A DNA stretch of 40,116 bases from a bacterium. GTDB lineage: Bacteria; Patescibacteriota; Doudnabacteria; UBA920; VMFF01. Position numbers and translations under genes: made by a program. Below the pieces are notes generated by a model. That model ran no database searches. It was not told where the DNA came from and saw nothing but the letters and a program-made list of their open reading frames with translations. The stretch lies in assembly GCA_021842385.1 (NCBI GenBank), contig JAKCAE010000011.1, forward strand, positions 1 to 40,116, written 5' to 3'. Positions 28,371 to 40,116 of the stretch are shown here, one piece after another (within the stretch, counting starts at the first letter, position 1; each line of letters opens with the position of its first letter).

Positions 28371-28565
28371 ATGCCTAAAATGAAGACCCACAAAGGAGCC
28401 TCCAAGCGTTTCAAGAAAACTGGCTCCGGAAAAATTGTTTACCGCAAAGCTGGACAAGATCACTTCAACTCCAGGGAAAGCGGAAAAACAACCAAGAACA
28501 AGAGACGCGACATGACTTTAACTAAGTCAAACCCAGGAATCGGAATTTTAATCACACATAAATAA
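28371..28565 (+). CDS. rpmI: 50S ribosomal protein L35
   Basis: [21 protein letters not shown]. Confidence 0.96.
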
Positions 28566-28566
28566 C

Positions 28567-28911
28567 ATGACAAGAATAAAACGCGGAGTAGCCGCATCTA
28601 AAAGAAGAAAGAACTTACTAAAAAGAGCAAAAGGTTTTGAAAACAGAAGAAGCACAAACTTTGTCGCAGCAAGAGAAGCGCTCCTGCATGCAGACAAATA
28701 TGCTTACAGAGACAGAAGAAACAAGAAGCGCGACATGCGCGCACTCTGGCTCATTAGATTAAACGCTGCTTTAAGAGACAATGGCACAACCTACAGTAAA
28801 TTCGCCGGAGCCTTAAAGAAAGCAAAGATTAACCTCAACAGAAAGACTCTTTCTGAACTGGCAATCAAAAGCCCGGAAGCATTTGAAGCATTAGTAAAAC
28901 AGGTTAAATAA
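28567..28911 (+). CDS. rplT: 50S ribosomal protein L20
   Basis: MTRIKRG..AKGF..AYRDRRNKKRDMRALWLIRLNAA. Confidence 0.97.
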   Translation: MTRIKRGVAASKRRKNLLKRAKGFENRRSTNFVAAREALLHADKYAYRDRRNKKRDMRALWLIRLNAALRDNGTTYSKFAGALKKAKINLNRKTLSELAIKSPEAFEALVKQVK

Positions 28912-28967: not shown

Positions 28968-29546
28968 TTATTTAGTTGGGGCTGGGGTCTGAGTTGCTGG
29001 AGGAGTTGTTGCTGGTGTTTGTGCTGCTGGAGTTTGAGTTCCTGCATTTGCATTAGCACCGTTCTTCTTGTATTCCTCAATTGCTTGAGCAACACGTCCG
29101 TCTGCTTTCAATTCTTCAAAGAACAAAATTTGATCTCTGTTGATTTGCATAACGTCATCAGGACCGTGCAACTCATTACCTAATTTAACCAAGGACAACT
29201 GTGGCTGTTGGTTTTGGGTTTGGGTTGCTGGCTGACCAGATTGCAACTGTTCTTGCTGGTTAACCTGGAGGTAATAAATATCTTTCAAGGTTACATATTT
29301 ATCTCTCATATCAGAAACTTTACCAAAGTAAACCTGACCATTGGTTAGGAATACTGCCTGATAACCGGAAAGCTTTGTCTGGGACTTTGAACCCATACCA
29401 AGCTTGTCTCTAAACAAGAAACCTAAAACTGCTAAAACTACAACTACCACAATTACCAATACAACCCAAGGAGCGCGTGAGCCCCCCTGTGCTGGCATTG
29501 GTTGTGCCGAACCCATTTGAGGTTGGCCGTTCATCATTTGATTCAT
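28968..29546 (-). CDS. Conserved CPR-type membrane-anchored hypothetical protein
   Basis: TM followed by YQAVFLTNGQVYFGK..DIYYLQ..LVKLGNELHGP..INRDQILFFE. Confidence 0.8.
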   Translation of the reverse strand: MNQMMNGQPQMGSAQPMPAQGGSRAPWVVLVIVVVVVLAVLGFLFRDKLGMGSKSQTKLSGYQAVFLTNGQVYFGKVSDMRDKYVTLKDIYYLQVNQQEQLQSGQPATQTQNQQPQLSLVKLGNELHGPDDVMQINRDQILFFEELKADGRVAQAIEEYKKNGANANAGTQTPAAQTPATTPPATQTPAPTK

Positions 29547-29600
29547 ATGTTTATATATAACTATTAATTAATACCTAAAACTTTAAACCTCCGATATTTT

Positions 29601-30233
29601 TTAACAACGCAAGATCTCAAAAAGAACACTATTAACAACAAGCACAGAATCCTTTGGTTTAAAACCAAGAGATTCAGAAGAGTAGGATGTTTCTAAAACA
29701 TCACCTATTGCCTGAGAAAATTCGTAACCAAAACCATTTGAAGAAACGATGGCAACTTCTTGTTTAGTATTTGAACTTACTAAACCAAACCGTGCTATCT
29801 TTGGCGTTTCTTTAAAAACCAAAATATGTCCGACAGATGAGTTTGTAAGATTATTTACTGCCAGAGTTTCCTGATATGAAAAAGAGCCGACATTCAAAGA
29901 AAGAGAAAAACAATTAAGCTCCTGATTCAAACTAAAAGTATTCTGCAACTTTGGAATATATATTGCCCGTCCTGCAACTTCCGTATTACAGCTATCCAAT
30001 GCAGTTGCCTTAGCAACAAAACGTTTTTCAACAAAAACACCGCTACTATCAATTGCCGTAACATACTGGATATTCTTTGTCTCTAAAACAAAGCTATCTA
30101 CTGCAACAGGAGTAATTGCGGCGTAGGAAAAAGCCTCTACTCTAAGACCATAACTAAGTATGGCCAAAAGCGCAAAAATACTGTAAAAAACCGTGAATAA
30201 TTTGAACTTTTGTATGGATTTCATTAGGCTCAC
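29601..30233 (-). CDS. Hypothetical exported protein
   Basis: 210 aa ORF; signal-like N-terminus; TATAAT 6 nt before GTG. Confidence 0.6.
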   Translation of the reverse strand: MSLMKSIQKFKLFTVFYSIFALLAILSYGLRVEAFSYAAITPVAVDSFVLETKNIQYVTAIDSSGVFVEKRFVAKATALDSCNTEVAGRAIYIPKLQNTFSLNQELNCFSLSLNVGSFSYQETLAVNNLTNSSVGHILVFKETPKIARFGLVSSNTKQEVAIVSSNGFGYEFSQAIGDVLETSYSSESLGFKPKDSVLVVNSVLFEILRC

Positions 30234-30387
30234 TTAACGATTATATTATACCACGTTTAAGGTCTTTTTCCAAAAGAAACAAGACTCCCCTGTGGACAAG
30301 TTTAGAACATAAATTGTTAAGAAAAAAGTTAATCTGAAATTAATGTTGATCTGTTAAACTTTGTAAAACCATTAAAACTCAACAAAG

Positions 30388-30789
30388 ATGTTTTCTGATT
30401 ATACAACAGCTTTCAAAAACTGGTGCAGGTTAAAAATCAAGCTTTGGAACAGGCCCAAAACGACGGTTTTCAAGCAAGGAGATATTTGGTGGTGTAGCTT
30501 AGGAATGAATTTGGGTGAAGAAATCTTTGGCAAGGGTGAAAAACTTACCCGTCCGGTTTTAATCTTTAGAAAATTCACATCTAATTCTTTTCTAGGCTTA
30601 CCGTTAACTACCCAAGAAAAACAAGGTAGTTGGTATGTAGAAACAGAACTTAAAGGAGTCAAAAGATGGGCTATGCTCAACCAAGCTCGTATATTAGACA
30701 AAAAGCGCCTGACTAGCCGAGTCGGGGCGCTTGATAACGGACAATTAAATAGGGTTAAGAGACACTTCTTAGAGCTCTATTCTTCCTAA
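30388..30789 (+). CDS. MazF/PemK-family endoribonuclease toxin, solitary
   Basis: KQGDIWWCSLGMNLGEEIFGKG..RPVLIF..GLPLTT..NQARILDKKRL. Confidence 0.88.
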   Translation: MFSDYTTAFKNWCRLKIKLWNRPKTTVFKQGDIWWCSLGMNLGEEIFGKGEKLTRPVLIFRKFTSNSFLGLPLTTQEKQGSWYVETELKGVKRWAMLNQARILDKKRLTSRVGALDNGQLNRVKRHFLELYSS

Positions 30790-30878
30790 AAATCGTCACC
30801 CCGCCTTTTAAGGGGCGGGGCTCAGTGGGAAATCCCAAATTGTGTATATACAATATCAAAAGATTAAAAGTTTGTCAA
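30788..30878 (-). ncRNA. Candidate small-RNA unit (promoter + ~55-nt structured RNA) convergent on the MazF/PemK gene
   Basis: Minus strand TTGACA(30878-73)-17-TATTGT(30855-50), then ACAATTTGGGATTTCCCACTGAG-CCCCGCC-CCTTAAAA-GGCGGGG-TGACGATTTTT ending at the toxin stop codon. Confidence 0.6.
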
Positions 30879-30913
30879 AAATGAGCGAACTCATACAGAG
30901 TTCGTCCCATTGT

Positions 30914-33900
30914 CTACGGTGTTGTTGTGCCTGTATCCCCTGTTGCAACTGTTCCTGATGTGTCAGCTGCTGCTGTTGGCGTATCGCTTACTGTAGGAAC
31001 AGCACTAGGTGCAGGTTCTGTCACAGTTATGGTTTGATCGGTGGTTGCTGCTGTATCAGTTGAAACGGTTGAGCTTGTGTCTGTTGAGCTTGCTGTCGTA
31101 TCAGTTGGTGTTGTTGTTGCGTCAACAGGTGTTGTTGCAGTGTCAGAGCCTGTGCTTTGAGTTGTTGTTGTATCTGGGGAAACAGAAGAGCCCGAAGAAG
31201 CAGCGGGAGCGCTTGTTGTGTTCGTTGGTTCTGCATTACCACTAACATAACTGTTATTAATCATCAACAATACTCTTACTTTTCCTGATCCAGAAACCAA
31301 GCCATCCAAAGCTATACCAATTACAGGCATTCCGCTTTCATTTGGCTTTAATTTTCTTGCATGCCCTGAGACATCAGAGATTGTTAACTTGTCACCAGGC
31401 AATATTGAATTTTGAGTCAAACCATCCCCTGCTTCCACATTAATCATTCCAAATGTTCCAGAAGTAACAACATTCATAAACTCACCCTTAGGAATTACTG
31501 TGTTGCTTGAGGCTTTGGAAACAGGAGCTCCAGGGATGTCAAAATCTGACATGTTTCTGTCAGCAACACCGACAACGATTGTTGCTTTGATAACTTGGGA
31601 GTCGCCACTTGGAGATGTTACTTCTGCTAAACCGTTTGTTTCAGAGGCTAAAGATGTGTCTGCTTTAGAAACACTTAATATTGGGTTATTACCGACGATT
31701 GTTTCACTTTCAACACCTCTTAAGACCACAACATCACCTTGAGCAATATCTACATCACCAATATTTCTGGCAAGAATTGCGGTTGAACCAAGAACTTGTC
31801 CTAAAGCAACTAAGTCTTTCTTAACAATTAAGCTTGCGCCAAGAACTGCTCCGCCCTTTGCCCTGATGACAAATTGCTCAATGCCGTTGTTTCTAATGAC
31901 AAAGATGTTCTTTCCGGAATCCAACGCAATGCTTGTGTTGATACTGATAGCGCCGTTTGAGGCAATCATGAAGCGATTTACTTTTCCAGACTGCACTTGC
32001 AAGATGTCAGCATTAACTGCGGCTGTTGTGTTTGCAGTATCTGTAGCATTTACTGTTGTATTCACAGCTTGTCTGATGACAAAGGTTAGGGATGAGCTGG
32101 AAGAAGCAATTGATTCTGCAACATCTGCAGAACCTTGGGTGGTTGCAGAATCACCAGATGCAATCTGTTGAGCAGTTAAGGCTGCAATATCGTCATTTCC
32201 CAAAACAAAGGTGTTGTTAATTTGCTCGTATGCTGTTCTTAAGGAAACAAGGACCTTGCCTGTATGGATTGTTAAACCATTAACAACTTGCGAATTTTCT
32301 GAAGCATTAAAACCTGCCAAAGCCTGACCGACAACTCTTCCTGAAACTGTCGCGCGCATCGCAAATCCAGGGATTGATGAAGATGCTGTTAAGAAATCGC
32401 CTCTGGAAACAGGACCATTTTCATCAGTAATGTTTACCAAAGTTGTACCACTGTATGCCACGCTCTTTATGGCATCAACCGAATTAACAACCTCACCGTC
32501 TCTTGGCATACCTAAGACAAAGCCGCCTTTTTCAACTATCACACCAAAGATTGAAGAATCATATGGCTTAGTTGCTTTTGAAATATTTGCACCGATTATG
32601 GCAACAACATCTCCTGAAGAAGCATCGTCTGAGATGACAAATTCCTGAGTATATGTGGAAGCGCCGGTTGTAATGAACTGTCCACCAATTGTTATGGATC
32701 CTGAAACAAACATGTTTCCTTCAGTTGTAACTCTTAACTGGGTTGTAGAAACACCGCCAACCTCTGCCACTATCCTGAAGATGTCCGCAGCAACTCCTTC
32801 GGCAAAGTCAGCGGTTGATTGAATTGTTAAGCCTACCACTGCATCTGTGCTGTCGTCTGAAATATGAACTCTGGTTTCAGGAGTGCTTGTGCCAAAACCA
32901 ACATTGCCGTTTGTAACAATCAAACCATAATGCTTAACACCAGTTGCACCCATGTCATTAAAGATTGGGTTAATTAAGACTGCGGTTAAGGATGTTGCTG
33001 TTTGGGTTGTTCCGTCTGCTAAGGTTTTAACAGCATTCAATCCGCTTGCAATCTCAAAGGCAGCGCTTGGTGCTTCTGTGCCAAAACCAACATTGCCGTT
33101 TTCATCAAAGACAAATTGTGCTGGAGCTGTGTAGTACTGAGGGCGGATCAAAACACGAATTGTTGTAACAACAACTTTTGGATCAGCAGCAACAGGGTTA
33201 CCTAAAGCATCTAAAGGCGCATCTTTTGCCGCAATTGCCTGAGCTTGTTCTAAGCTGTAACCTTCCATAGCTACACCAACAACATATCCGGAAGAGGTTG
33301 CTTTTTTACCAACACCAGCAACAGAAGAAACTGTGATGTAATCACCAGGCTTAATCTCTCCGCCGTCAAGATTTACTTTTACCGACAACTGTCCAATCAA
33401 ACCAACAAGGGTGTTGTATGACGCAAAATGTGCATCGCAATCACTATCATCAACTTTACAAATTGGACCGTTTCCAACGAAGCCGGCGTTGTTAGAAACA
33501 ACACCAACTATCGGAGCAACAGAGCTGGTGGCTTTCTTAACAGTTTTTCCGGAAGAAACATCAAAGGCAACGATTTCTGAATCCTCTAGCTTGTTATTTG
33601 CGTCAGCATCTAAGAACCATTCTGCCAAGTCAGCACCAGTTGTGGTGTAAGCAACAGCAGAAGCACCACCTTGAATCTTACCTGCAACTGTTCCATCTGC
33701 TGTAGCAAAACCAATGAAGTAGTTATTAGCGTTTCTGCTACCATTTGCAATACCCAAGCTAATTAACAAACCATCTGCAGTTGTGCTTGTGTTTGTGTTA
33801 TTTATCCTTGCAACATACGTTGAAGCTTGAGAATCCTGAACAATGAGCTTGTAGCTAGAAGTAGCACTGGTTCCGAAAGCAATATTTCCGTTGTTTGCGA

Positions 33901-36900
33901 TATTTAATGATTTGTTCAAAGTCGTATCAGTTGCATAAGTTCCAACTATGCTCTGTCCGGTAGAATTATTATAGTAAAAATTCAGGAAAGATGTTGAAGA
34001 CAAAGCAGTGCTTGATATATATACGCCTAAAGTAACAGAAAAATCTATTTTGGTTCCAAAGCTTAAAACAGTGCTTGAAGATATTGTTCCTGTAACTGAA
34101 TATCCATTAAAGGTTGATGCGTCAGCGTAAGAAATGGCAAAGTTAGTAGCATCTAACATGGCAACTGCTGTGTGTATTGCATTATCTGTAGTAAAGTAAT
34201 ACTTAGACCCGAATGTGATTGTGTTTCCTGAATATGTCGCAGCAGCAGCAGCACCGTAAGATGAATTTCCTGTATCCTGGAATGAAACAATGAATCCTGT
34301 TGTTGATATGGCATCCATAGAAATCCAGGCAGTGTTCAATGAATTAAATGTAACAGCAGTTCCAAAGGTGATTGTAGTACCTGCGGTAACATCACCAATT
34401 ATAGATCTGCCGGTAGTTGCAGAAAGATAGCTTACCACAAATTTTGTTGAGGAAAGTGCTTTAACAACATTGTAGCTTGCTGGAGTTGCGGAAGCAGTAT
34501 AGTTTACTGCTGTGCCGTATGATGAAATTGTTGTGCCGGAAACAACACCGACTCTTGCCTGACCTCTGTTGTTTACACTGTCATTGTAGACTATGACAAA
34601 GTGCGTTGAATCTAAAGCCGCAACAGAAACATAATAGTTGTTAGTTGCATTTCCTGGAGTAACCGCAGCGCCACAACTAAATGTATTCCCTGAAATGGAA
34701 CAGACTTTTGCATAAATGACGGCGCCAGCTGAAGAAACCCAACCAACTACTATGTGTGTGCTATCAAGCACAGAAACACTGACCTGACCATGCAGAACCG
34801 TACCAGATGTTTCTATAGCTATTGATCCTGGCGTAGCACCCCATGAAATTGTATTACCCACGTACGTTCCAATGTTTACAGTAACAGCGTCAGCAGGACC
34901 TCCGTTATCGTAAACATACGCAGCAACAACATGGCTTGCATCCAACTTTACTAAAGACGTTGCTTGAACTGCTGCAGCAATAAACTGAGTTTGGGTGCCA
35001 AAGGAAGATGTGTATGTTGTGGCACTTGCCGGAATTGTTCCAATTATACTCTGCCCGGTAGATGTTGAGCGTCCGTATATATTCAAAAATCTAGTAGAAG
35101 AAAGCGCTGCATTTGATATATTTAGATTTTGGACTGATGCTTCTATGGCAACTTTTGTTCCAAAACTTAAAACAGTACTTGAAGATATTGTTCCTGTAAC
35201 TGAATATCCATAGCTGCTGGTCCCAGAAAATGTAATAGCAATATTTGTAGAATCTAACATGGAAACAGCTGTGTATGTCACAGCATCTGTTGTGAAGTAA
35301 TACTTAGACCCAAAGGTGATTGTGTTTCCTGAATATGTCGCAGCAATTGCAGCACCATTTTGTCCGTTTCCTGCGTCTTGATAGGTAACAATGAATCCTG
35401 TAGTAGATATTGTATCCATAGAAATCCAAGGAGTATTTGCTGAATTAAATGTAACAGCTGTCCCAAAGGTAATTGTTGTACCAGCTGTAACATCACCGAT
35501 TATTGATTTTCCTGTAGAAGAAGCTGTATGACTGACCACGAATTTTGTTGAAGAAAGCGCTTTAACAACATTGTAATTTGCTGTTGTTGAAGTTGCTGTG
35601 TAGTTGACTGCTGTGCCGTAGGATGAGATTGTTGTGCCGGAAACAACACCGACTCTTGCCTGACCTCTGTTGTTTACACTGTCATTGTAGACTATGACAA
35701 AGTGCGTTGAATCTAAAGCCGCAACTGAAATGGAATAGCTTGTACCAACAGTTGCAGGACTGTTAGAAGCGCCACAACTAAACGTTGTTCCAGAAATTGA
35801 ACACACTCTAGCGCTTATGGCACCGCCAACTGTTGTACTCCAAGCAACAACAATGTGCGTGCTATCTAATGCAGAAACACTAATATATCCTTGAGAAATA
35901 GCTCCTGTTGAATCATTAACCAAGTTTGACCCTGTAGCCCAAGCAATGGAATCATTAACATATGTTCCAACTTGCACATAAACCGAGGCATTTACACCAT
36001 CGTCGTAAACATATGCAGCAACAACATGAGTTGAATCCAATTTGACAAGAGATGTTGCTGCGGCATTGCCGCCCAAAAACTGTGTTTGTGTTCCAAAAGT
36101 AATAGGATTTCCCGGTCCATTTACGGCAAAGAGTGCGCTTGTGCTTACAGTTGTCTGAGAAATCTGAGCATTGCCTAAAACATCCAAGGCCTGAGTTGGG
36201 TTTGTCCCAACACCAAGCCAACCTGCTGAGCTAACTGTTGTAAGTGCTGTCCCTGCAGAATTCTGAACCTCAAAGAGATTTGCGCTCTGACTTGGAGCAG
36301 CTTGTACTACCAAAGGCTTATCATTTGCATCAATGGAGGAGATGAACTCACCACCGTTTGAAACTAAACCTCTATTTGCAGCAACTGTTGAAGCGGTTGT
36401 TCTGGCATAAACTTCAGGCACTGTATCTTGAACTAACTGCGCGCCCCAAGCAATGATTGTTCCGGTTGAACCATTTCCAGGCAAGATAACGGCTTTAATA
36501 TTTGAAGGCGTTCCTGTAAAGTTTTGAGTCACTGAAAATCTTTGCCAGGTTGTTGTTGCGGTATATGTTGTGGCTGTTCCTGTTGTTGGGGTTGCACCTG
36601 TTGAATCAATTCTTAATCCTGTTGTTACAGTTCCAGAGGTTGTTTTTGCCCAGAAGGAGAAAGTATAGTTGCCATTTGTTGTTGTGGTGTATGTTTGAAT
36701 GAGTGAGCTTGCGCCGGTTCCTGCAAGAGTATCACCAGTTGTAGTTCCATCAGGAGCTGCCGTTGAATTAGCAGTAACTGTAATACCAGTTGCAGCCCAT
36801 GCTGCGTTATCCAACTGCTCTGAGTATGTTAACAAGTTCTGGAATCTTCCTAACCCACCAAACCCGTTATTCAAGTTACCAGTGAACTCCTGATCACCAG

Positions 36901-39900
36901 CTGCTGTTACTCTCAAAGTATTTGCACCAGTAGAATCTTGAATCTGTAATGAATCAGCTGTTGCAGATGCAATCTGCTTTATCTTCGCACCAACGTTTCC
37001 AACAGCAGTTTGGTTTACATCTAATTGTGCGGTTGGAGTGCTATCTGTACCAATACTTACTTTTCTTCCTGACAAAATCATGGTGTTTTGAACGCCAGTA
37101 CCATCTCCAGTGACTTGTCTAAAATAGATATCTGCATTTTCTGCTGTACTTGTGTGCGATGTATTCTTAACACCAATCTGTGCTGCGCTGTACAAAGCAG
37201 CCACTGAGTTATTTGTCTGGAAAGACATCAACATTCCGTTATTTGCTGTAGTATCTAAGTTTCTAACAGAAAGCTGTGGGAAACCACTAAATGGAGATGT
37301 ACTTGTATTGTCATACCTTGTAATCAAAGCATAATCAGCAGCAGTTTGAGTAACGTCTAATTTGGCTGCAGGTGTTACCGTCCCAATACCGACATACCCA
37401 TTTCCATCTAACACCATTTGTGCTGTGGCAGAATTATTAGCAAAACCAAGTAGTCTTGTGGCTGCGCTAGAACCAGTTATATATCCGATATACGCGTTTG
37501 CTGTAACTCCATCTGTTAATCTCAAGGCTGACCATGTGGTTGTTCCACCAGTAGTTCCTAAAGCCAAAGTATTTGCGGTGTTGATTGCAGCTCCTCCTGC
37601 TGTCTCTATTTCTAATTTTCCAAGTGTTGGACCGGACACGCCGATACCAACGTTGCCACTACCGGCATTGATAATAGTGTTGTTGCCCTGGTTATTTAGC
37701 TGCAAAGGCTTGGAAGCCCAAGATTGAATATATGCATAAGTAGCATCTGAACCGACGGTTAAATTGGTTGTGCCCTGGTTAGCCAAAGCAATACCATAAG
37801 TTCCAGGTGTTCCAACCGTAACATTTGCCGATTGATTAGATGTCAACAAATTAGCTGGACTTACAGTGCCTACTCCCAAATTCCCGCCATTGAAATATGA
37901 AGAGCCGCCGCCGTTAATAACAGCGTTGGTGCCAAAGGTTCCAGTGCCAGCTGTTTTGAAATTACCCGTGTTTGAAGAAAGTTCCGCTACAATCGAAGGA
38001 GTTGTTGATGATATAGTTCCAGACTCCCAAGTCCAACCATAACCTGCAACGTTTTCAATGAAGCTTCGCAAGCCCCAGCTTGTAACATATGTACCAGTAG
38101 GAGCTGTAATATTTCCGGTTGGTCCTAAACTTGTACCGGCAGCAGGTCCCATATATTCAGCCCAAGCATTATAGGTCCCGATGTTATACCAGCTTATACC
38201 AGAAGCTGCATTAGCGCTTCTCGCAATCGCAATCTTAGGAAGAGTCGCTATGCCTGTTCCAGAGTTCATAGCAAGACTTCCAGTAATATTTGTTGTGTCT
38301 GTTGCGTAATTTCTATCAATCCACCTGGATGGTGTGCCAGCGTTCCATATCAAAAGACCTGCTTGTGGTGAACTCCCATTCCACGTTTCCATAGAAACAC
38401 CAAAACCAGTCGTGAATTGCGATCTGAAACCATAGTTCGTAGTTATTGTTGCAGGATCAGCCGTAGTAGCGCCAGCACTTTCGGGAGACCTAAATGATCC
38501 TGTATTCGCAGCACCATTTCTTACTCCTGAACTTGAATAATATATAGGAGTAGTTACAGAGGTGCCAATGACGGGTGCTGCGGAGAATGAAGGAGCACCT
38601 GCATTAGCAACGAGCACTGTGTTAGCAGCACCTTGAGCTGTGGCTTGTATTGCTCCTGTGCCATTACCATAGAGAACTCCGTTAGAAGTAAGGGTGGTTG
38701 CTCCAGTACCGCCATACGGCACTGTTACTGTAGAACCATTCCAAGTGCCTGTAGTAATTACACCAGTGTTTGCAGTAACAATTAATCCATTGTATGAAGC
38801 AGCTCCTGTGATTGCACCGGCAGCTGAGATGTTGATGCTTCCTGATGTTAAAATATTATCCCAACCAGTTCCAACATTAATTGCATTTTCGGTTCCTGCT
38901 CCACCAGTAATCGCGTCAAGCTTGATTCCATTTTCTGTAACACCAGAAGCAGCGGTGCTTCCTACTAATCTTAGACCACTCCATGTTCCACCTGTAGTAC
39001 CGCCTGCTGTTAAATCTACTCTCATGGCAGAAGCTTCCACAGCAGCTGCGCCTCCTACATATGTAACAGCAAGTGCATTTACTCCGGCAGTAGTGACAGC
39101 TTGTCCGGTATTTGTAATTTGTACCATATCAGTAGTAGGAACGGCTGAAGCTTGGAACTTAGCAATACCGGCTCCCACTAGATTAAAGGTTGCTCCAGCT
39201 GTTCCTGAATTAAAGACCAACCCTGTTGCGCCTGTGGTGTTACCAATTGTAATTGTTTTGGCATTAGCCCCTGTTCCTATATTGAGCGCATTAGTTGTGG
39301 CTGAATCAACCGAGAGTGTTCCCGTTGAAGTAAGAATCGGTGTTGTAACCGAAGTTGAGAATCCGCCAGTACCCACAACCTGCAAATTATACGAGGTAGG
39401 GCTTGTTGTACCGATACCAACGTTGCTGCCTAAAAATGTCATTATGTCTGTCATTGTGCCTACATTATCTGTCAGACCCATCGTGGCGATTGCCGTATTG
39501 CCAATTTGTCTGCCTCCTTTCACGAAAAAGCCTCGATCATTGTTGTGGTTAACACGTAACACACCGTAAGTATTATCAGAGTCCGCGCCTCCCTCAAAAC
39601 GCGCGACCTCGACATTGCCGGTACCACCGCTTACCTTTACATGAAACTGTGTGGCAGCGGCCGTGTCATCGATTGAATATGGCGTCGTTGTCCCAATCCC
39701 AACATTTCCATTGCCAAGTACTGAGAGTCTGGTTCCTCCAACAAGGGTGTAGGCTGCTCCTGAGTTTGTTCCTGTCCAAGCATCTGTTGTTAGGGAGGTG
39801 TTTGATGCAATTGCAGAGATTGTTCTTGTTTCTGCATTTACTGTGATGGTATCACCTACTTTGAAGGTGTTAAGGAACTGGGTACCTACACCTGTTACTG

Positions 39901-40116
39901 TGGTTAGTGTTGCTGTTGTTGATACTGTTCCTGCTCCTGTTGTTCCTTGGGCTACCTGGAGATTTGCTGTTGGAGCTGTGGTACCTATACCGACGTTGCC
40001 AGAATTTAAGATAACCATTCTTTTTGCCGGAACATAATTAACTCCGACGGTAAGACCTGTGTCATTCCAAAATTCTGTAGAACCATCTTGACGAAAATTT
40101 ATTCCGGAAGCTGCTG
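30914..40116 (-). CDS. Giant surface fibre/adhesin-like protein (5' end outside window, >3060 aa)
   Basis: Frame remains open from 40018 to the window end; many GNVGIGTTxP repeats, tandem beta-propeller-like domains, GADLAEWF chaperone-like motif, Thr/Pro-rich tail. Confidence 0.85.
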   Translation of the reverse strand, partial: AASGINFRQDGSTEFWNDTGLTVGVNYVPAKRMVILNSGNVGIGTTAPTANLQVAQGTTGAGTVSTTATLTTVTGVGTQFLNTFKVGDTITVNAETRTISAIASNTSLTTDAWTGTNSGAAYTLVGGTRLSVLGNGNVGIGTTTPYSIDDTAAATQFHVKVSGGTGNVEVARFEGGADSDNTYGVLRVNHNNDRGFFVKGGRQIGNTAIATMGLTDNVGTMTDIMTFLGSNVGIGTTSPTSYNLQVVGTGGFSTSVTTPILTSTGTLSVDSATTNALNIGTGANAKTITIGNTTGATGLVFNSGTAGATFNLVGAGIAKFQASAVPTTDMVQITNTGQAVTTAGVNALAVTYVGGAAAVEASAMRVDLTAGGTTGGTWSGLRLVGSTAASGVTENGIKLDAITGGAGTENAINVGTGWDNILTSGSINISAAGAITGAASYNGLIVTANTGVITTGTWNGSTVTVPYGGTGATTLTSNGVLYGNGTGAIQATAQGAANTVLVANAGAPSFSAAPVIGTSVTTPIYYSSSGVRNGAANTGSFRSPESAGATTADPATITTNYGFRSQFTTGFGVSMETWNGSSPQAGLLIWNAGTPSRWIDRNYATDTTNITGSLAMNSGTGIATLPKIAIARSANAASGISWYNIGTYNAWAEYMGPAAGTSLGPTGNITAPTGTYVTSWGLRSFIENVAGYGWTWESGTISSTTPSIVAELSSNTGNFKTAGTGTFGTNAVINGGGSSYFNGGNLGVGTVSPANLLTSNQSANVTVGTPGTYGIALANQGTTNLTVGSDATYAYIQSWASKPLQLNNQGNNTIINAGSGNVGIGVSGPTLGKLEIETAGGAAINTANTLALGTTGGTTTWSALRLTDGVTANAYIGYITGSSAATRLLGFANNSATAQMVLDGNGYVGIGTVTPAAKLDVTQTAADYALITRYDNTSTSPFSGFPQLSVRNLDTTANNGMLMSFQTNNSVAALYSAAQIGVKNTSHTSTAENADIYFRQVTGDGTGVQNTMILSGRKVSIGTDSTPTAQLDVNQTAVGNVGAKIKQIASATADSLQIQDSTGANTLRVTAAGDQEFTGNLNNGFGGLGRFQNLLTYSEQLDNAAWAATGITVTANSTAAPDGTTTGDTLAGTGASSLIQTYTTTTNGNYTFSFWAKTTSGTVTTGLRIDSTGATPTTGTATTYTATTTWQRFSVTQNFTGTPSNIKAVILPGNGSTGTIIAWGAQLVQDTVPEVYARTTASTVAANRGLVSNGGEFISSIDANDKPLVVQAAPSQSANLFEVQNSAGTALTTVSSAGWLGVGTNPTQALDVLGNAQISQTTVSTSALFAVNGPGNPITFGTQTQFLGGNAAATSLVKLDSTHVVAAYVYDDGVNASVYVQVGTYVNDSIAWATGSNLVNDSTGAISQGYISVSALDSTHIVVAWSTTVGGAISARVCSISGTTFSCGASNSPATVGTSYSISVAALDSTHFVIVYNDSVNNRGQARVGVVSGTTISSYGTAVNYTATSTTANYNVVKALSSTKFVVSHTASSTGKSIIGDVTAGTTITFGTAVTFNSANTPWISMDTISTTGFIVTYQDAGNGQNGAAIAATYSGNTITFGSKYYFTTDAVTYTAVSMLDSTNIAITFSGTSSYGYSVTGTISSSTVLSFGTKVAIEASVQNLNISNAALSSTRFLNIYGRSTSTGQSIIGTIPASATTYTSSFGTQTQFIAAAVQATSLVKLDASHVVAAYVYDNGGPADAVTVNIGTYVGNTISWGATPGSIAIETSGTVLHGQVSVSVLDSTHIVVGWVSSAGAVIYAKVCSISGNTFSCGAAVTPGNATNNYYVSVAALDSTHFVIVYNDSVNNRGQARVGVVSGTTISSYGTAVNYTASATPASYNVVKALSSTKFVVSYLSATTGRSIIGDVTAGTTITFGTAVTFNSLNTAWISMDAISTTGFIVSFQDTGNSSYGAAAAATYSGNTITFGSKYYFTTDNAIHTAVAMLDATNFAISYADASTFNGYSVTGTISSSTVLSFGTKIDFSVTLGVYISSTALSSTSFLNFYYNNSTGQSIVGTYATDTTLNKSLNIANNGNIAFGTSATSSYKLIVQDSQASTYVARINNTNTSTTADGLLISLGIANGSRNANNYFIGFATADGTVAGKIQGGASAVAYTTTGADLAEWFLDADANNKLEDSEIVAFDVSSGKTVKKATSSVAPIVGVVSNNAGFVGNGPICKVDDSDCDAHFASYNTLVGLIGQLSVKVNLDGGEIKPGDYITVSSVAGVGKKATSSGYVVGVAMEGYSLEQAQAIAAKDAPLDALGNPVAADPKVVVTTIRVLIRPQYYTAPAQFVFDENGNVGFGTEAPSAAFEIASGLNAVKTLADGTTQTATSLTAVLINPIFNDMGATGVKHYGLIVTNGNVGFGTSTPETRVHISDDSTDAVVGLTIQSTADFAEGVAADIFRIVAEVGGVSTTQLRVTTEGNMFVSGSITIGGQFITTGASTYTQEFVISDDASSGDVVAIIGANISKATKPYDSSIFGVIVEKGGFVLGMPRDGEVVNSVDAIKSVAYSGTTLVNITDENGPVSRGDFLTASSSIPGFAMRATVSGRVVGQALAGFNASENSQVVNGLTIHTGKVLVSLRTAYEQINNTFVLGNDDIAALTAQQIASGDSATTQGSADVAESIASSSSSLTFVIRQAVNTTVNATDTANTTAAVNADILQVQSGKVNRFMIASNGAISINTSIALDSGKNIFVIRNNGIEQFVIRAKGGAVLGASLIVKKDLVALGQVLGSTAILARNIGDVDIAQGDVVVLRGVESETIVGNNPILSVSKADTSLASETNGLAEVTSPSGDSQVIKATIVVGVADRNMSDFDIPGAPVSKASSNTVIPKGEFMNVVTSGTFGMINVEAGDGLTQNSILPGDKLTISDVSGHARKLKPNESGMPVIGIALDGLVSGSGKVRVLLMINNSYVSGNAEPTNTTSAPAASSGSSVSPDTTTTQSTGSDTATTPVDATTTPTDTTASSTDTSSTVSTDTAATTDQTITVTEPAPSAVPTVSDTPTAAADTSGTVATGDTGTTTP
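33930..36100 (-). repeat. Tandem intragenic duplication (~365 codons per unit)
   Basis: 98-nt identical blocks at 34527-34624 and 35628-35725 (offset 1101); both units begin FGTQTQF. Confidence 0.9.

Follow-up and report, generated by a model that had tools for sequence, protein, structure and literature searches.

The 40,116-nucleotide window analysed here (contig JAKCAE010000011.1 of assembly GCA_021842385.1, from a member of the Doudnabacteria, Patescibacteriota) carries a gene for a toxin of the PemK/MazF family and, directly behind it on the opposite strand, what appears to be the gene of a small RNA of about 55 nucleotides (nt). The list of open reading frames (ORFs) gives the toxin no neighbour in its own orientation. 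From their joint conservation we consider it very probable that toxin and small RNA make up one functional unit. Its parts are the following:

30388..30789, plus strand: ORF of the PemK/MazF-fold toxin, 133 amino acids (aa), from the ORF list and Pfam.
30873..30878, minus strand: -35 hexamer TTGACA of the small-RNA promoter, from a consensus scan and conservation.
30850..30855, minus strand: -10 hexamer TATTGT, 17 nt after the -35 and preceded by TG (extended -10).
30788..30843, minus strand: predicted small RNA of about 56 nt, consisting of the 5' end ACAAUUU, hairpin 1, the linker CUGAG, the terminator hairpin and UGACGAUUUUU, both ends being inferred.
30826..30837, minus strand: hairpin 1, a stem of 4 base pairs (bp), UGGG/CCCA, with the loop AUUU, from the RNA fold.
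30799..30820, minus strand: terminator hairpin, a 7-bp GC stem CCCCGCC/GGCGGGG with an 8-nt loop, from the consensus scan (hairpin span 30821..30798, tail GACGATTTTT).

The toxin matched the Pfam family PemK_toxin (PF02452) over residues 29-128 with an expectation value (E) of 1.6e-13 and 51.2 bits (cut-off 23.1), and no model of NCBIfam or PADLOC matched it. When a profile of 19 homologues was compared with solved structures in the Protein Data Bank (PDB), the best relative was YdcE/EndoA of Bacillus subtilis (E 7.5e-8). The RPVL and PLT of the toxin were aligned to its RPVL and AIT, that is, to Arg25 and Thr48, which we take to be the catalytic residues of B. subtilis MazF. In the 19 homologues Arg55 (TRPVL) is invariant and Thr74 (PLT) nearly so, being at least 90% conserved. 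An AlphaFold2 model (predicted local distance difference test score 75.4) shows a helix at residues 3-20, the MazF strands and a C-terminal helix at residues 117-132, and its top Foldseek matches are all MazF proteins (Staphylococcus aureus, B. subtilis and Escherichia coli) with probability 1.00 and template modelling scores of 0.6-0.75. Judged by homology and by this model, the protein is an endoribonuclease of the PemK/MazF fold, with the SH3-like barrel of MazF/Kid and the catalytic Arg and Thr kept, and it would be expected to cut RNA and to inhibit growth.

The N-terminal helix (residues ~3-20) is particular to this toxin subfamily and is basic, the net charge over residues 1-28 being +5. 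About 135 of the best 150 alignments of an exhaustive search begin at or before query residue 15. That search, made among clusters at 50% identity, counted 1826 representatives of the subfamily at E<=0.001, 1026 at <=1e-10 and 5 at <=1e-30. A word-indexed search returned 331 proteins, and the best 120 of these are 62-100% identical to the toxin, nearly all 131-135 aa long, and belong to Patescibacteria lineages wherever a lineage is named. The databases label these relatives 'type II toxin-antitoxin system PemK/MazF family toxin'.

The promoter of the small RNA, TTGACA-17-TATTGT, agrees with the consensus at 10 of 12 positions. We placed the start of the RNA 7 nt after the -10, because the distance from the -10 to ACAAUUU is fixed across loci, and its end in the U run. 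This run (30788..30792, minus strand) overlaps the stop codon of the toxin, because the A run to which its T run is complementary holds the TAA at 30787..30789. A 61-nt minus-strand RNA folds into the UGGG-AUUU-CCCA hairpin and an 8-bp GC hairpin at -22.5 kcal/mol (z -2.6; 5 of 200 shuffled sequences were as stable). A covariance model, here called R1, recognises the element at 30788..30844 of the minus strand with 72.3 bits (E 1.9e-18), and this is its only copy in the 565-kb genome. These features predict an RNA transcribed from its own promoter with the start and end given above. No RNA data set was listed for 29600-31600, and three metatranscriptome runs of the same study (X1-X3, contigs) contained nothing on 30200-31100, which is uninformative either way on expression.

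The only ORF across the RNA element is a 34-aa TTG frame (30755..30859, minus strand). A peptide encoded by the small RNA was considered and rejected, as this frame is broken by indels among the homologues. Plus-strand frames over the element are shared by just 4 of 46 loci, which follows from the conservation of the nucleotides.

An AT-rich intergenic region may by chance contain a promoter look-alike beside the terminator of the toxin or of the giant convergent gene that follows it, and the window taken alone would speak for this explanation, since 2 kb of it held 3 promoter-like sites where 4.5 were expected from shuffles. It is the conservation of the promoter in 33 aligned loci, in which the spacer is not conserved, that raises it above chance. 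These loci come from two scans of species-representative genomes, the first yielding 14 toxin loci and the second 49, those 14 among them, from Sungbacteria, Paceibacterota, Saccharibacteria, Giovannonibacteria, Woesebacteria, Doudnabacteria, Nomurabacteria, Falkowbacteria, Magasanikbacteria and others; loci of Arcobacter, Aliarcobacter and Sulfurimonas are also among them, at 34-43% identity. The regions upstream of the toxin are unrelated between loci and the 100 nt past its stop are clearly similar. A regular expression for a reversed -10, 16-18 nt and a reversed -35 matched at the expected place in 40 of the 49 sources, elsewhere only in 2, and nowhere in 7.

For the minus-strand alignment 33 of the 49 sources were chosen for their alignability, and kin among them are not independent; the other 16 (L034, L035, L037, L043-L045, L049-L051, L055-L060 and L062) were divergent or had coding sequence entering the element. 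All 33 aligned loci have TTGAC, and 25 of them have A as the last base of the -35; positions 1, 2 and 6 of the -10 (T, A and T) are invariant, giving TAnnnT, and the spacer measures 16-18 nt. The information content is 0.26 bits per position in the spacer and 0.63 in the discriminator, and the nominally unpaired segments of the RNA carry 1.39 (5' end), 1.40 (linker) and 1.28 (3' tail), values comparable to that of the -10.

The two stems are conserved as structures. In an alignment of the RNA alone, made with MAFFT and not fitted to any model, 94.2% of the helix cells are paired compared with 84.1% in shuffles, and double-sided changes are seen in 7 of 11 pairs. Not one of 500 shuffles came up to any of five structure measures, and slid-partner controls paired in 48-61%. 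Six of the seven pairs of the terminator stem have double-sided changes and are still paired (94.8% of cells unfitted, 97.9% fitted). The hairpin-1 stem is kept in 93% of cells, with compensatory changes from G-C to A-U and from G-C to C-G, and RNAalifold recovered unaided the terminator stem and two of the four hairpin-1 pairs. In the alignment of 42 R1 matches fitted to the model, which leans towards structure, 96.2% of cells are paired and 9 of 11 pairs show double changes. The loop of hairpin 1 is free to vary: of 42 sequences about 22 have the AUUU(U) type, about 8 a GNRA-type tetraloop and 5 GUUA. That of the terminator hairpin is often GAAA, GCAA or UUCG. Moreover, a near-invariant GA(U) stands before the terminator stem (30821..30825) and UGA after it (30794..30798), both read on the minus strand. 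On the minus-strand RNA only, these could extend the helix by a U.U pair and tandem sheared G.A pairs, a platform of the type that proteins bind.

All R1 matches, 42 in 50 sources, are placed directly at the 3' end of a toxin gene, on the opposite strand. Nine did not come from the 33 seeds; of these, those in L055 (E 0.25) and L044 (E 0.35) are marginal, and another, in L036, adjoins a second 133-aa toxin paralogue. The invariant promoter positions, the covarying stems and this strict linkage in dozens of loci with otherwise unrelated flanks refute the explanation by chance, to which we leave practically no probability. Everything that a sequence-only reading of the window had described stands at the coordinates it gave, including the promoter with its 17-nt spacer, an RNA of about 55 nt with the UGGG-AUUU-CCCA and GC hairpins and a U tract on the stop codon, and the lack of an ORF that fits this RNA. 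That reading had made the conservation of promoter and first hairpin among homologues its test, and both are conserved, with compensatory changes and in unrelated contexts.

The toxin profile was also run on 151 sampled Patescibacteria genomes, of which 19 were positive, 15 of them at E<=1e-23; among the 131 genomes at least 90% complete, 16 carry the toxin. Carrier genomes measure 0.6-1.6 Mb, and several matches (matches, which are not copy numbers) occur in G082 (5), G069 (5) and G035 (3). With strict filters R1 was found in five of the 151 genomes, and three of its matches (G000, G043 and G082) abut a toxin. By eye, 17 of the 19 more distant toxin copies could be seen to share one layout, with a GC hairpin at the stop, then a small hairpin, and then the -10 and the -35, both reversed. 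Model R1 is too narrow for the distant toxin clades, where its correctly placed matches are weak.

Remote relatives of the toxin (30-39% identity) turned up on plasmids, in 15 records to which Campylobacter contributes 7, Helicobacter 6 and Nitratiruptor 2. Four of them were read, and they have the same convergent promoter and hairpins with unrelated sequence. This plasmid location points to a role in the maintenance of a plasmid or locus. The patchy, multi-copy presence of the module and its differing neighbours suggest that it is horizontally mobile and of the selfish type, and by comparison of these genomes the pairing of toxin and RNA is a conserved, mobile and often multi-copy unit in Patescibacteria.

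Some further observations concern the copies of the module. Several genomes of 0.8-1.5 Mb hold multiple paralogous toxin-RNA modules with diverged RNAs; loci L035 and L038 share one contig, and L036 holds two copies 1.1 kb apart. The toxin frame runs through the terminator hairpin or the whole RNA gene in L027, L045, L049, L051, L054, L056-L058, L076, L077 and L079, so that in these loci the end of the coding sequence and the RNA gene overlap. On a Nitratiruptor plasmid a 62-aa hypothetical ORF with a good ribosome-binding site (L092:1164-1352, plus strand) is annotated downstream of the PemK homologue and begins immediately behind the promoter of the small RNA. Judged by eye it resembles a ribbon-helix-helix protein, and if it is one it may serve that lineage as a protein antitoxin or as a regulator of the plasmid.

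The protein might not be a toxin at all, and the pair could instead be a housekeeping ribonucleoprotein or RNA-processing pair of ultra-small bacteria. The unusually high conservation of the protein across distant lineages (62-86% identity over 133 aa in the best 120 clusters) and the conserved structure of the RNA agree with this. A housekeeping function is nevertheless hard to reconcile with a toxin that only 19 of 151 genomes have (16 of the 131 with a completeness of 90% or more), some of them with several matches, or with the differing neighbours, the copies inactivated by deletion and the remote relatives on plasmids, and we regard this possibility as very unlikely.

A protein antidote was searched for around the toxin and in its genome. 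In 46 loci, 572 ORFs with a length of at least 35 aa lie no farther than 700 nt from the toxin, and among them no protein family recurs, MazE/PemI included; the only families seen in more than two loci were the plus-strand frames overlying the element (4 loci) and the neighbours shared by L026 and L030, two sister loci of Doudnabacteria type, for which one Aliarcobacter ORF is a further match. The genome of the window, which is 90% complete (565,066 bases in 45 contigs), yielded no MazE/AbrB domain (PF04014), and a whole-genome profile scan gave one toxin (a single match to PF02452) and one small RNA by model R1. Only two tandem repeats were found in 29500..31500, both inside the giant gene, and none resembles ToxI or lies by the toxin. 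The comparison with Rfam proposed with the sequence-only reading gave no relevant match at the window at E<=10, the pemK motif included, with chance-level matches to eukaryotic miRNA and snoRNA elsewhere; in 20 related loci at E<=1 the element was unmatched, one tRNA and one weak small-RNA match lying away from it. The same reading had seen no MazE or PemI gene, and these searches agree with it. Its suggestion of a possible anti-phage role found no support, as PADLOC had no match and, of 150 pattern matches in viral contigs of IMG/VR, none was confirmed as a relative.

The small RNA is then the natural candidate for the antidote, because there is no protein partner, because a strong and conserved promoter would drive the RNA while the region upstream of the toxin is not conserved, and because of the plasmid relatives and the pattern of decay. 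Three toxin ORFs have lost their catalytic part: that of L047 (2501-2782) retains residues 1-73, that of L061 (2501-2719) is without residues ~49-108, and that of L014 (1184-1381) is without residues ~63-129. Beside each of them stands an intact RNA gene with its promoter, which R1 scores at 74.6, 71.3 and 54.6 bits, respectively. That the RNA outlasts a deleted toxin is the order of decay expected of an antidote, which it suggests, and neutral decay is also possible. The sequence-only reading had proposed a tail-to-tail RNA-antitoxin module different from ToxI. As a genetic unit without tandem repeats this holds, and for the antidote role itself the comparative evidence leads us to believe, with reasonable confidence, that the small RNA neutralises the toxin.

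It can also be argued that the RNA is real and linked to the toxin without being its antidote, acting as an insulator or roadblock, as a trans regulator of host genes, or as a substrate or cofactor of the nuclease, and that the toxin is restrained by its N-terminal helix or by some host protein encoded elsewhere. Neutralisation is after all deduced from the arrangement, the helix is specific to the subfamily, and the 5' end of the RNA shows seed-like conservation. Solitary MazF genes under unlinked control are on record (PMC4803016). MrpC was reported to restrain the solitary MazF-mx in this way. Against this stands the strict linkage across unrelated hosts, in many copies, which indicates a self-contained pair and speaks against host-specific control. 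The helix is basic (+5), unlike the tail of MazE, which is acidic. Toxin-deleted loci retain the RNA gene, and the partner-less state is general in genomes of 0.6-1.6 Mb. On balance we find this explanation improbable.

If the small RNA is the antidote, the question is how it would act. We propose a compact two-gene module with an endoribonuclease of the MazF/PemK fold as its toxin and, as its antidote, an RNA of about 55 nt. A strong promoter of the sigma-70 type, belonging to the RNA gene itself, would direct transcription towards the toxin gene as far as its stop. With a logic like that of type III systems, this abundant and structured RNA would bind the toxin and block its RNA-binding groove. 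Binding may rest on the two rigid hairpins and on the strand-specific GA(U)/UGA motif at the base of the terminator helix, and the basic N-terminal helix of the subfamily could help to hold the RNA. Upon loss of the module or a stop in RNA synthesis, the free ribonuclease would arrest growth, and the pair would thereby be a self-maintaining, horizontally mobile element.

The alternative is a cis-encoded antisense antidote similar to type I, in which the 3' end of the toxin mRNA pairs with the small RNA and RNase III cuts the duplex. The cut would remove the protective GC hairpin behind the stop and the mRNA would decay, so that a labile RNA and a stabler mRNA give rise to post-segregational killing. 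The convergent, tail-to-tail layout of nearly all loci, with the terminator on or over the stop, is what such a mechanism would call for, and a parallel is offered by txpA/RatA and bsrG/SR4 of B. subtilis, type I pairs whose convergent antisense RNAs act through 3' overlaps. In three reports, which cite Shen et al. 2016 (Mol Microbiol 101:909), cjrA, on plasmid pVir of Campylobacter jejuni 81-176, is described as an antisense small RNA and a validated type I antitoxin (PMC10470494; PMC7826846; bioRxiv 10.1101/2020.01.02.893479), and the PemK homologue of pVir has the same layout as the module.

Several features do not fit antisense pairing well and favour direct binding. The constraint on the unpaired segments (1.3-1.4 bits, against 0.26 in the spacer) is not needed by a cis-antisense RNA, nor is a motif whose G.A pairing is possible on the minus-strand RNA alone. 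The overlap would not exceed about 55 nt, a stretch that folds tightly on either strand, and the loops are often GNRA- or UUCG-type tetraloops, which are stable and poor for loop-loop antisense contacts. Complementarity to the translation start of the toxin is not in excess (mean z +0.24). In L016 an insertion of about 110 nt parts the stop codon of the toxin from the small-RNA gene, and that gene is intact. The toxin is a ribonuclease of 133 aa and not a small membrane peptide, and ToxN, whose fold resembles that of Kid/MazF, is inhibited by RNA according to section 5.3 of PMC5086642. A trans target at the ribosome-binding site of the toxin was rejected, as it is not conserved, with only 1 of 30 loci below z -2.

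The L016 insertion belongs to a set of elements resembling miniature inverted-repeat transposable elements, with inverted ends CCCCGTTAGA... / ...TCTAACGGGG, which were seen at L016:2792-2905, from L051:2887 onward, and also in L002 and L013. One lies exactly between the toxin stop and the RNA gene of L016, others lie upstream of the toxin there, and that of L051 follows the small-RNA promoter.

There are also observations that weigh against direct binding or against the generality of the module, and they should be set beside those above. The U run begins 6 nt past the terminator stem (UGACGAUUUUU), which is not a canonical intrinsic terminator, and the small RNA may for this reason continue into the toxin gene as a true antisense. 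The consensus scan found no plus-strand terminator between the toxin stop and the small-RNA gene, so that a toxin mRNA reading through would carry the perfect complement of the RNA; the terminator lies on, over or abutting the toxin stop in nearly all loci, and the genome encodes RNase III. The constraint on the unpaired segments is in part trivial, due to the stop codon and the A run for the 3' tail and to promoter-proximal preferences for the 5' end. The G.A motif is not present in the distant plasmid loci of Campylobacterota, and if cjrA belongs to this family its type I label is a precedent against direct binding. As for R1, 9 of the 50 sources had no match (L035, L050, L051, L056-L060 and L062), the two weak matches in G147 and G127 (27-29 bits) fall inside unrelated ORFs and were taken as chance, and for the 19 distant toxin copies, with filters off, only weak matches (11-24 bits) were obtained, correctly placed in 9. 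Taking both sides, we find that the data lean slightly to direct binding over antisense action at the 3' end. Judged from these sequences, direct RNA-protein binding is a tentative choice for the main mode of neutralisation, with a chance somewhat short of even, and the antisense mechanism we hold to be rather unlikely.

The module is surrounded in the window by the following features:

29601..30233, minus strand: divergent gene upstream, separated from the toxin ORF by a gap of 154 bp.
30914..40114, minus strand: convergent giant ORF downstream, of at least 3066 aa, running past the end of the window.
30886..30904, minus strand: terminator of the convergent giant gene, ending just upstream of the small-RNA -35; context, outside the module.

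The solitary position of the toxin between these two genes agrees with what the sequence-only reading had given. As the terminator of the giant gene ends before the -35, the small RNA can be considered a separate transcription unit and not the tail of that gene. This terminator is not present at the other toxin loci, where the neighbours differ. Thr, Gly and Ser abound in the giant ORF, which also contains long repeats, two segments of ~370 aa that start FGTQTQF...LVKLD.SHVVAAYVYD; it is probably a surface protein of the ultra-small bacterium. Genes for the ribosomal proteins L35 and L20, recognised by eye from their translations, lie at 28371..28911 (plus strand), 1.5 kb upstream of the module. 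The surroundings are ordinary housekeeping genes with no obvious island.

MazF is the textbook type II toxin with a protein antidote, and RNA antidotes are known for the membrane peptides of type I and for ToxN-like ribonucleases with repeat arrays. To our knowledge, the combination of a MazF-fold ribonuclease with a single small convergent RNA gene has been described at most once, in Campylobacter, in a case that may belong to the present family. We are tempted to suggest, as a distinct possibility that we would still bet against, a large unrecognised class of toxin-antitoxin systems in which a MazF/PemK ribonuclease would be neutralised directly by a single, structured, independently transcribed convergent RNA of about 55 nt in place of MazE, with no repeats, no processing by the toxin, and a strand-specific G.A platform. 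Were this true, the class would be a missing link between types II and III, with more than 1000 clusters at 50% identity throughout Patescibacteria and reaching the plasmids of Campylobacterota, and many genes labelled 'type II PemK/MazF toxin' would be mis-typed. Most carriers of the toxin subfamily are uncultured bacteria of ultra-small size, a group in which hardly any regulatory RNAs are known. If confirmed, the pair of a 133-aa protein and an RNA of about 55 nt would offer an experimentally simple system for the silencing of a MazF nuclease by RNA, a defined promoter, small RNA and terminator for Patescibacteria, and a new covariance model for genome annotation. The genomes with several diverged toxin-RNA modules are a natural test set for cognate specificity.

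When compared with known systems, the module lacks the defining feature of type II (a protein antitoxin), two of those of type III (an upstream repeat array on the same strand and a ToxN-type toxin) and one of those of type I (a small peptide toxin). With the type II systems MazEF, PemIK and Kis-Kid it shares the fold, the family and the catalytic residues of the toxin; it differs from them in that no MazE or PemI stands beside the toxin in 46 loci and in the extra basic N-terminal helix. The Rfam pemK RNA motif is a conserved RNA named after nearby pemK genes, and its model is unmatched here.

Type III systems (ToxIN, CptIN and TenpIN, with AbiQ) have roles in plasmid stabilisation and abortive infection, and their RNA is a tandem-repeat array located upstream of the toxin on the same strand, co-transcribed with it and cut into units by it. 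The likeness is in the pairing of an endoribonuclease toxin with a structured non-coding RNA. In contrast, the RNA of the module is a single unit without repeats, downstream and convergent, with its own promoter and terminator, and its toxin is by sequence PemK/MazF and not ToxN/AbiQ, CptN or TenpN (only Pfam PemK_toxin matches, and PADLOC gives nothing). The type I pairs txpA/RatA and bsrG/SR4 resemble the module in being tail-to-tail, with a small RNA that has its own promoter and overlaps the 3' end of the toxin gene. However, their toxins are short hydrophobic peptides and their overlaps are longer, whereas the module has a soluble ribonuclease of 133 aa and an RNA that is constrained in sequence beyond complementarity.

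The closest comparison may be the cjrA/cjpT system of pVir, in which an RNA antitoxin and a protein toxin together ensure that the plasmid is kept. The type I label was given to it by its authors. The toxin partner of cjrA was reportedly called a 'proteic toxin', cjpT, by Shen et al. in 2016; the gene name cjpT was not found in the literature searched, the original cjrA/cjpT paper being outside that search. The PemK homologue of pVir (30630..31034) is 39% identical to the toxin over 74% of the query (E 8e-14) and is the only gene of its record annotated as toxin-antitoxin in the gene table of PLSDB, a table that is incomplete. The plasmid also carries several small ORFs without annotated function. 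No antitoxin gene adjoins the homologue, and downstream, on the opposite strand, there is a TTGATT-17-TATAAT promoter with the TG, followed by hairpins and by a GC hairpin at the stop. The RNA predicted there differs from that of the window, being about 95 nt long, with an extra hairpin and no sequence in common with the window element. From the homology, the annotation and the layout we put it at roughly even odds that CjpT is the PemK homologue of pVir, in which case cjrA/cjpT would be a remote member of the family described here.

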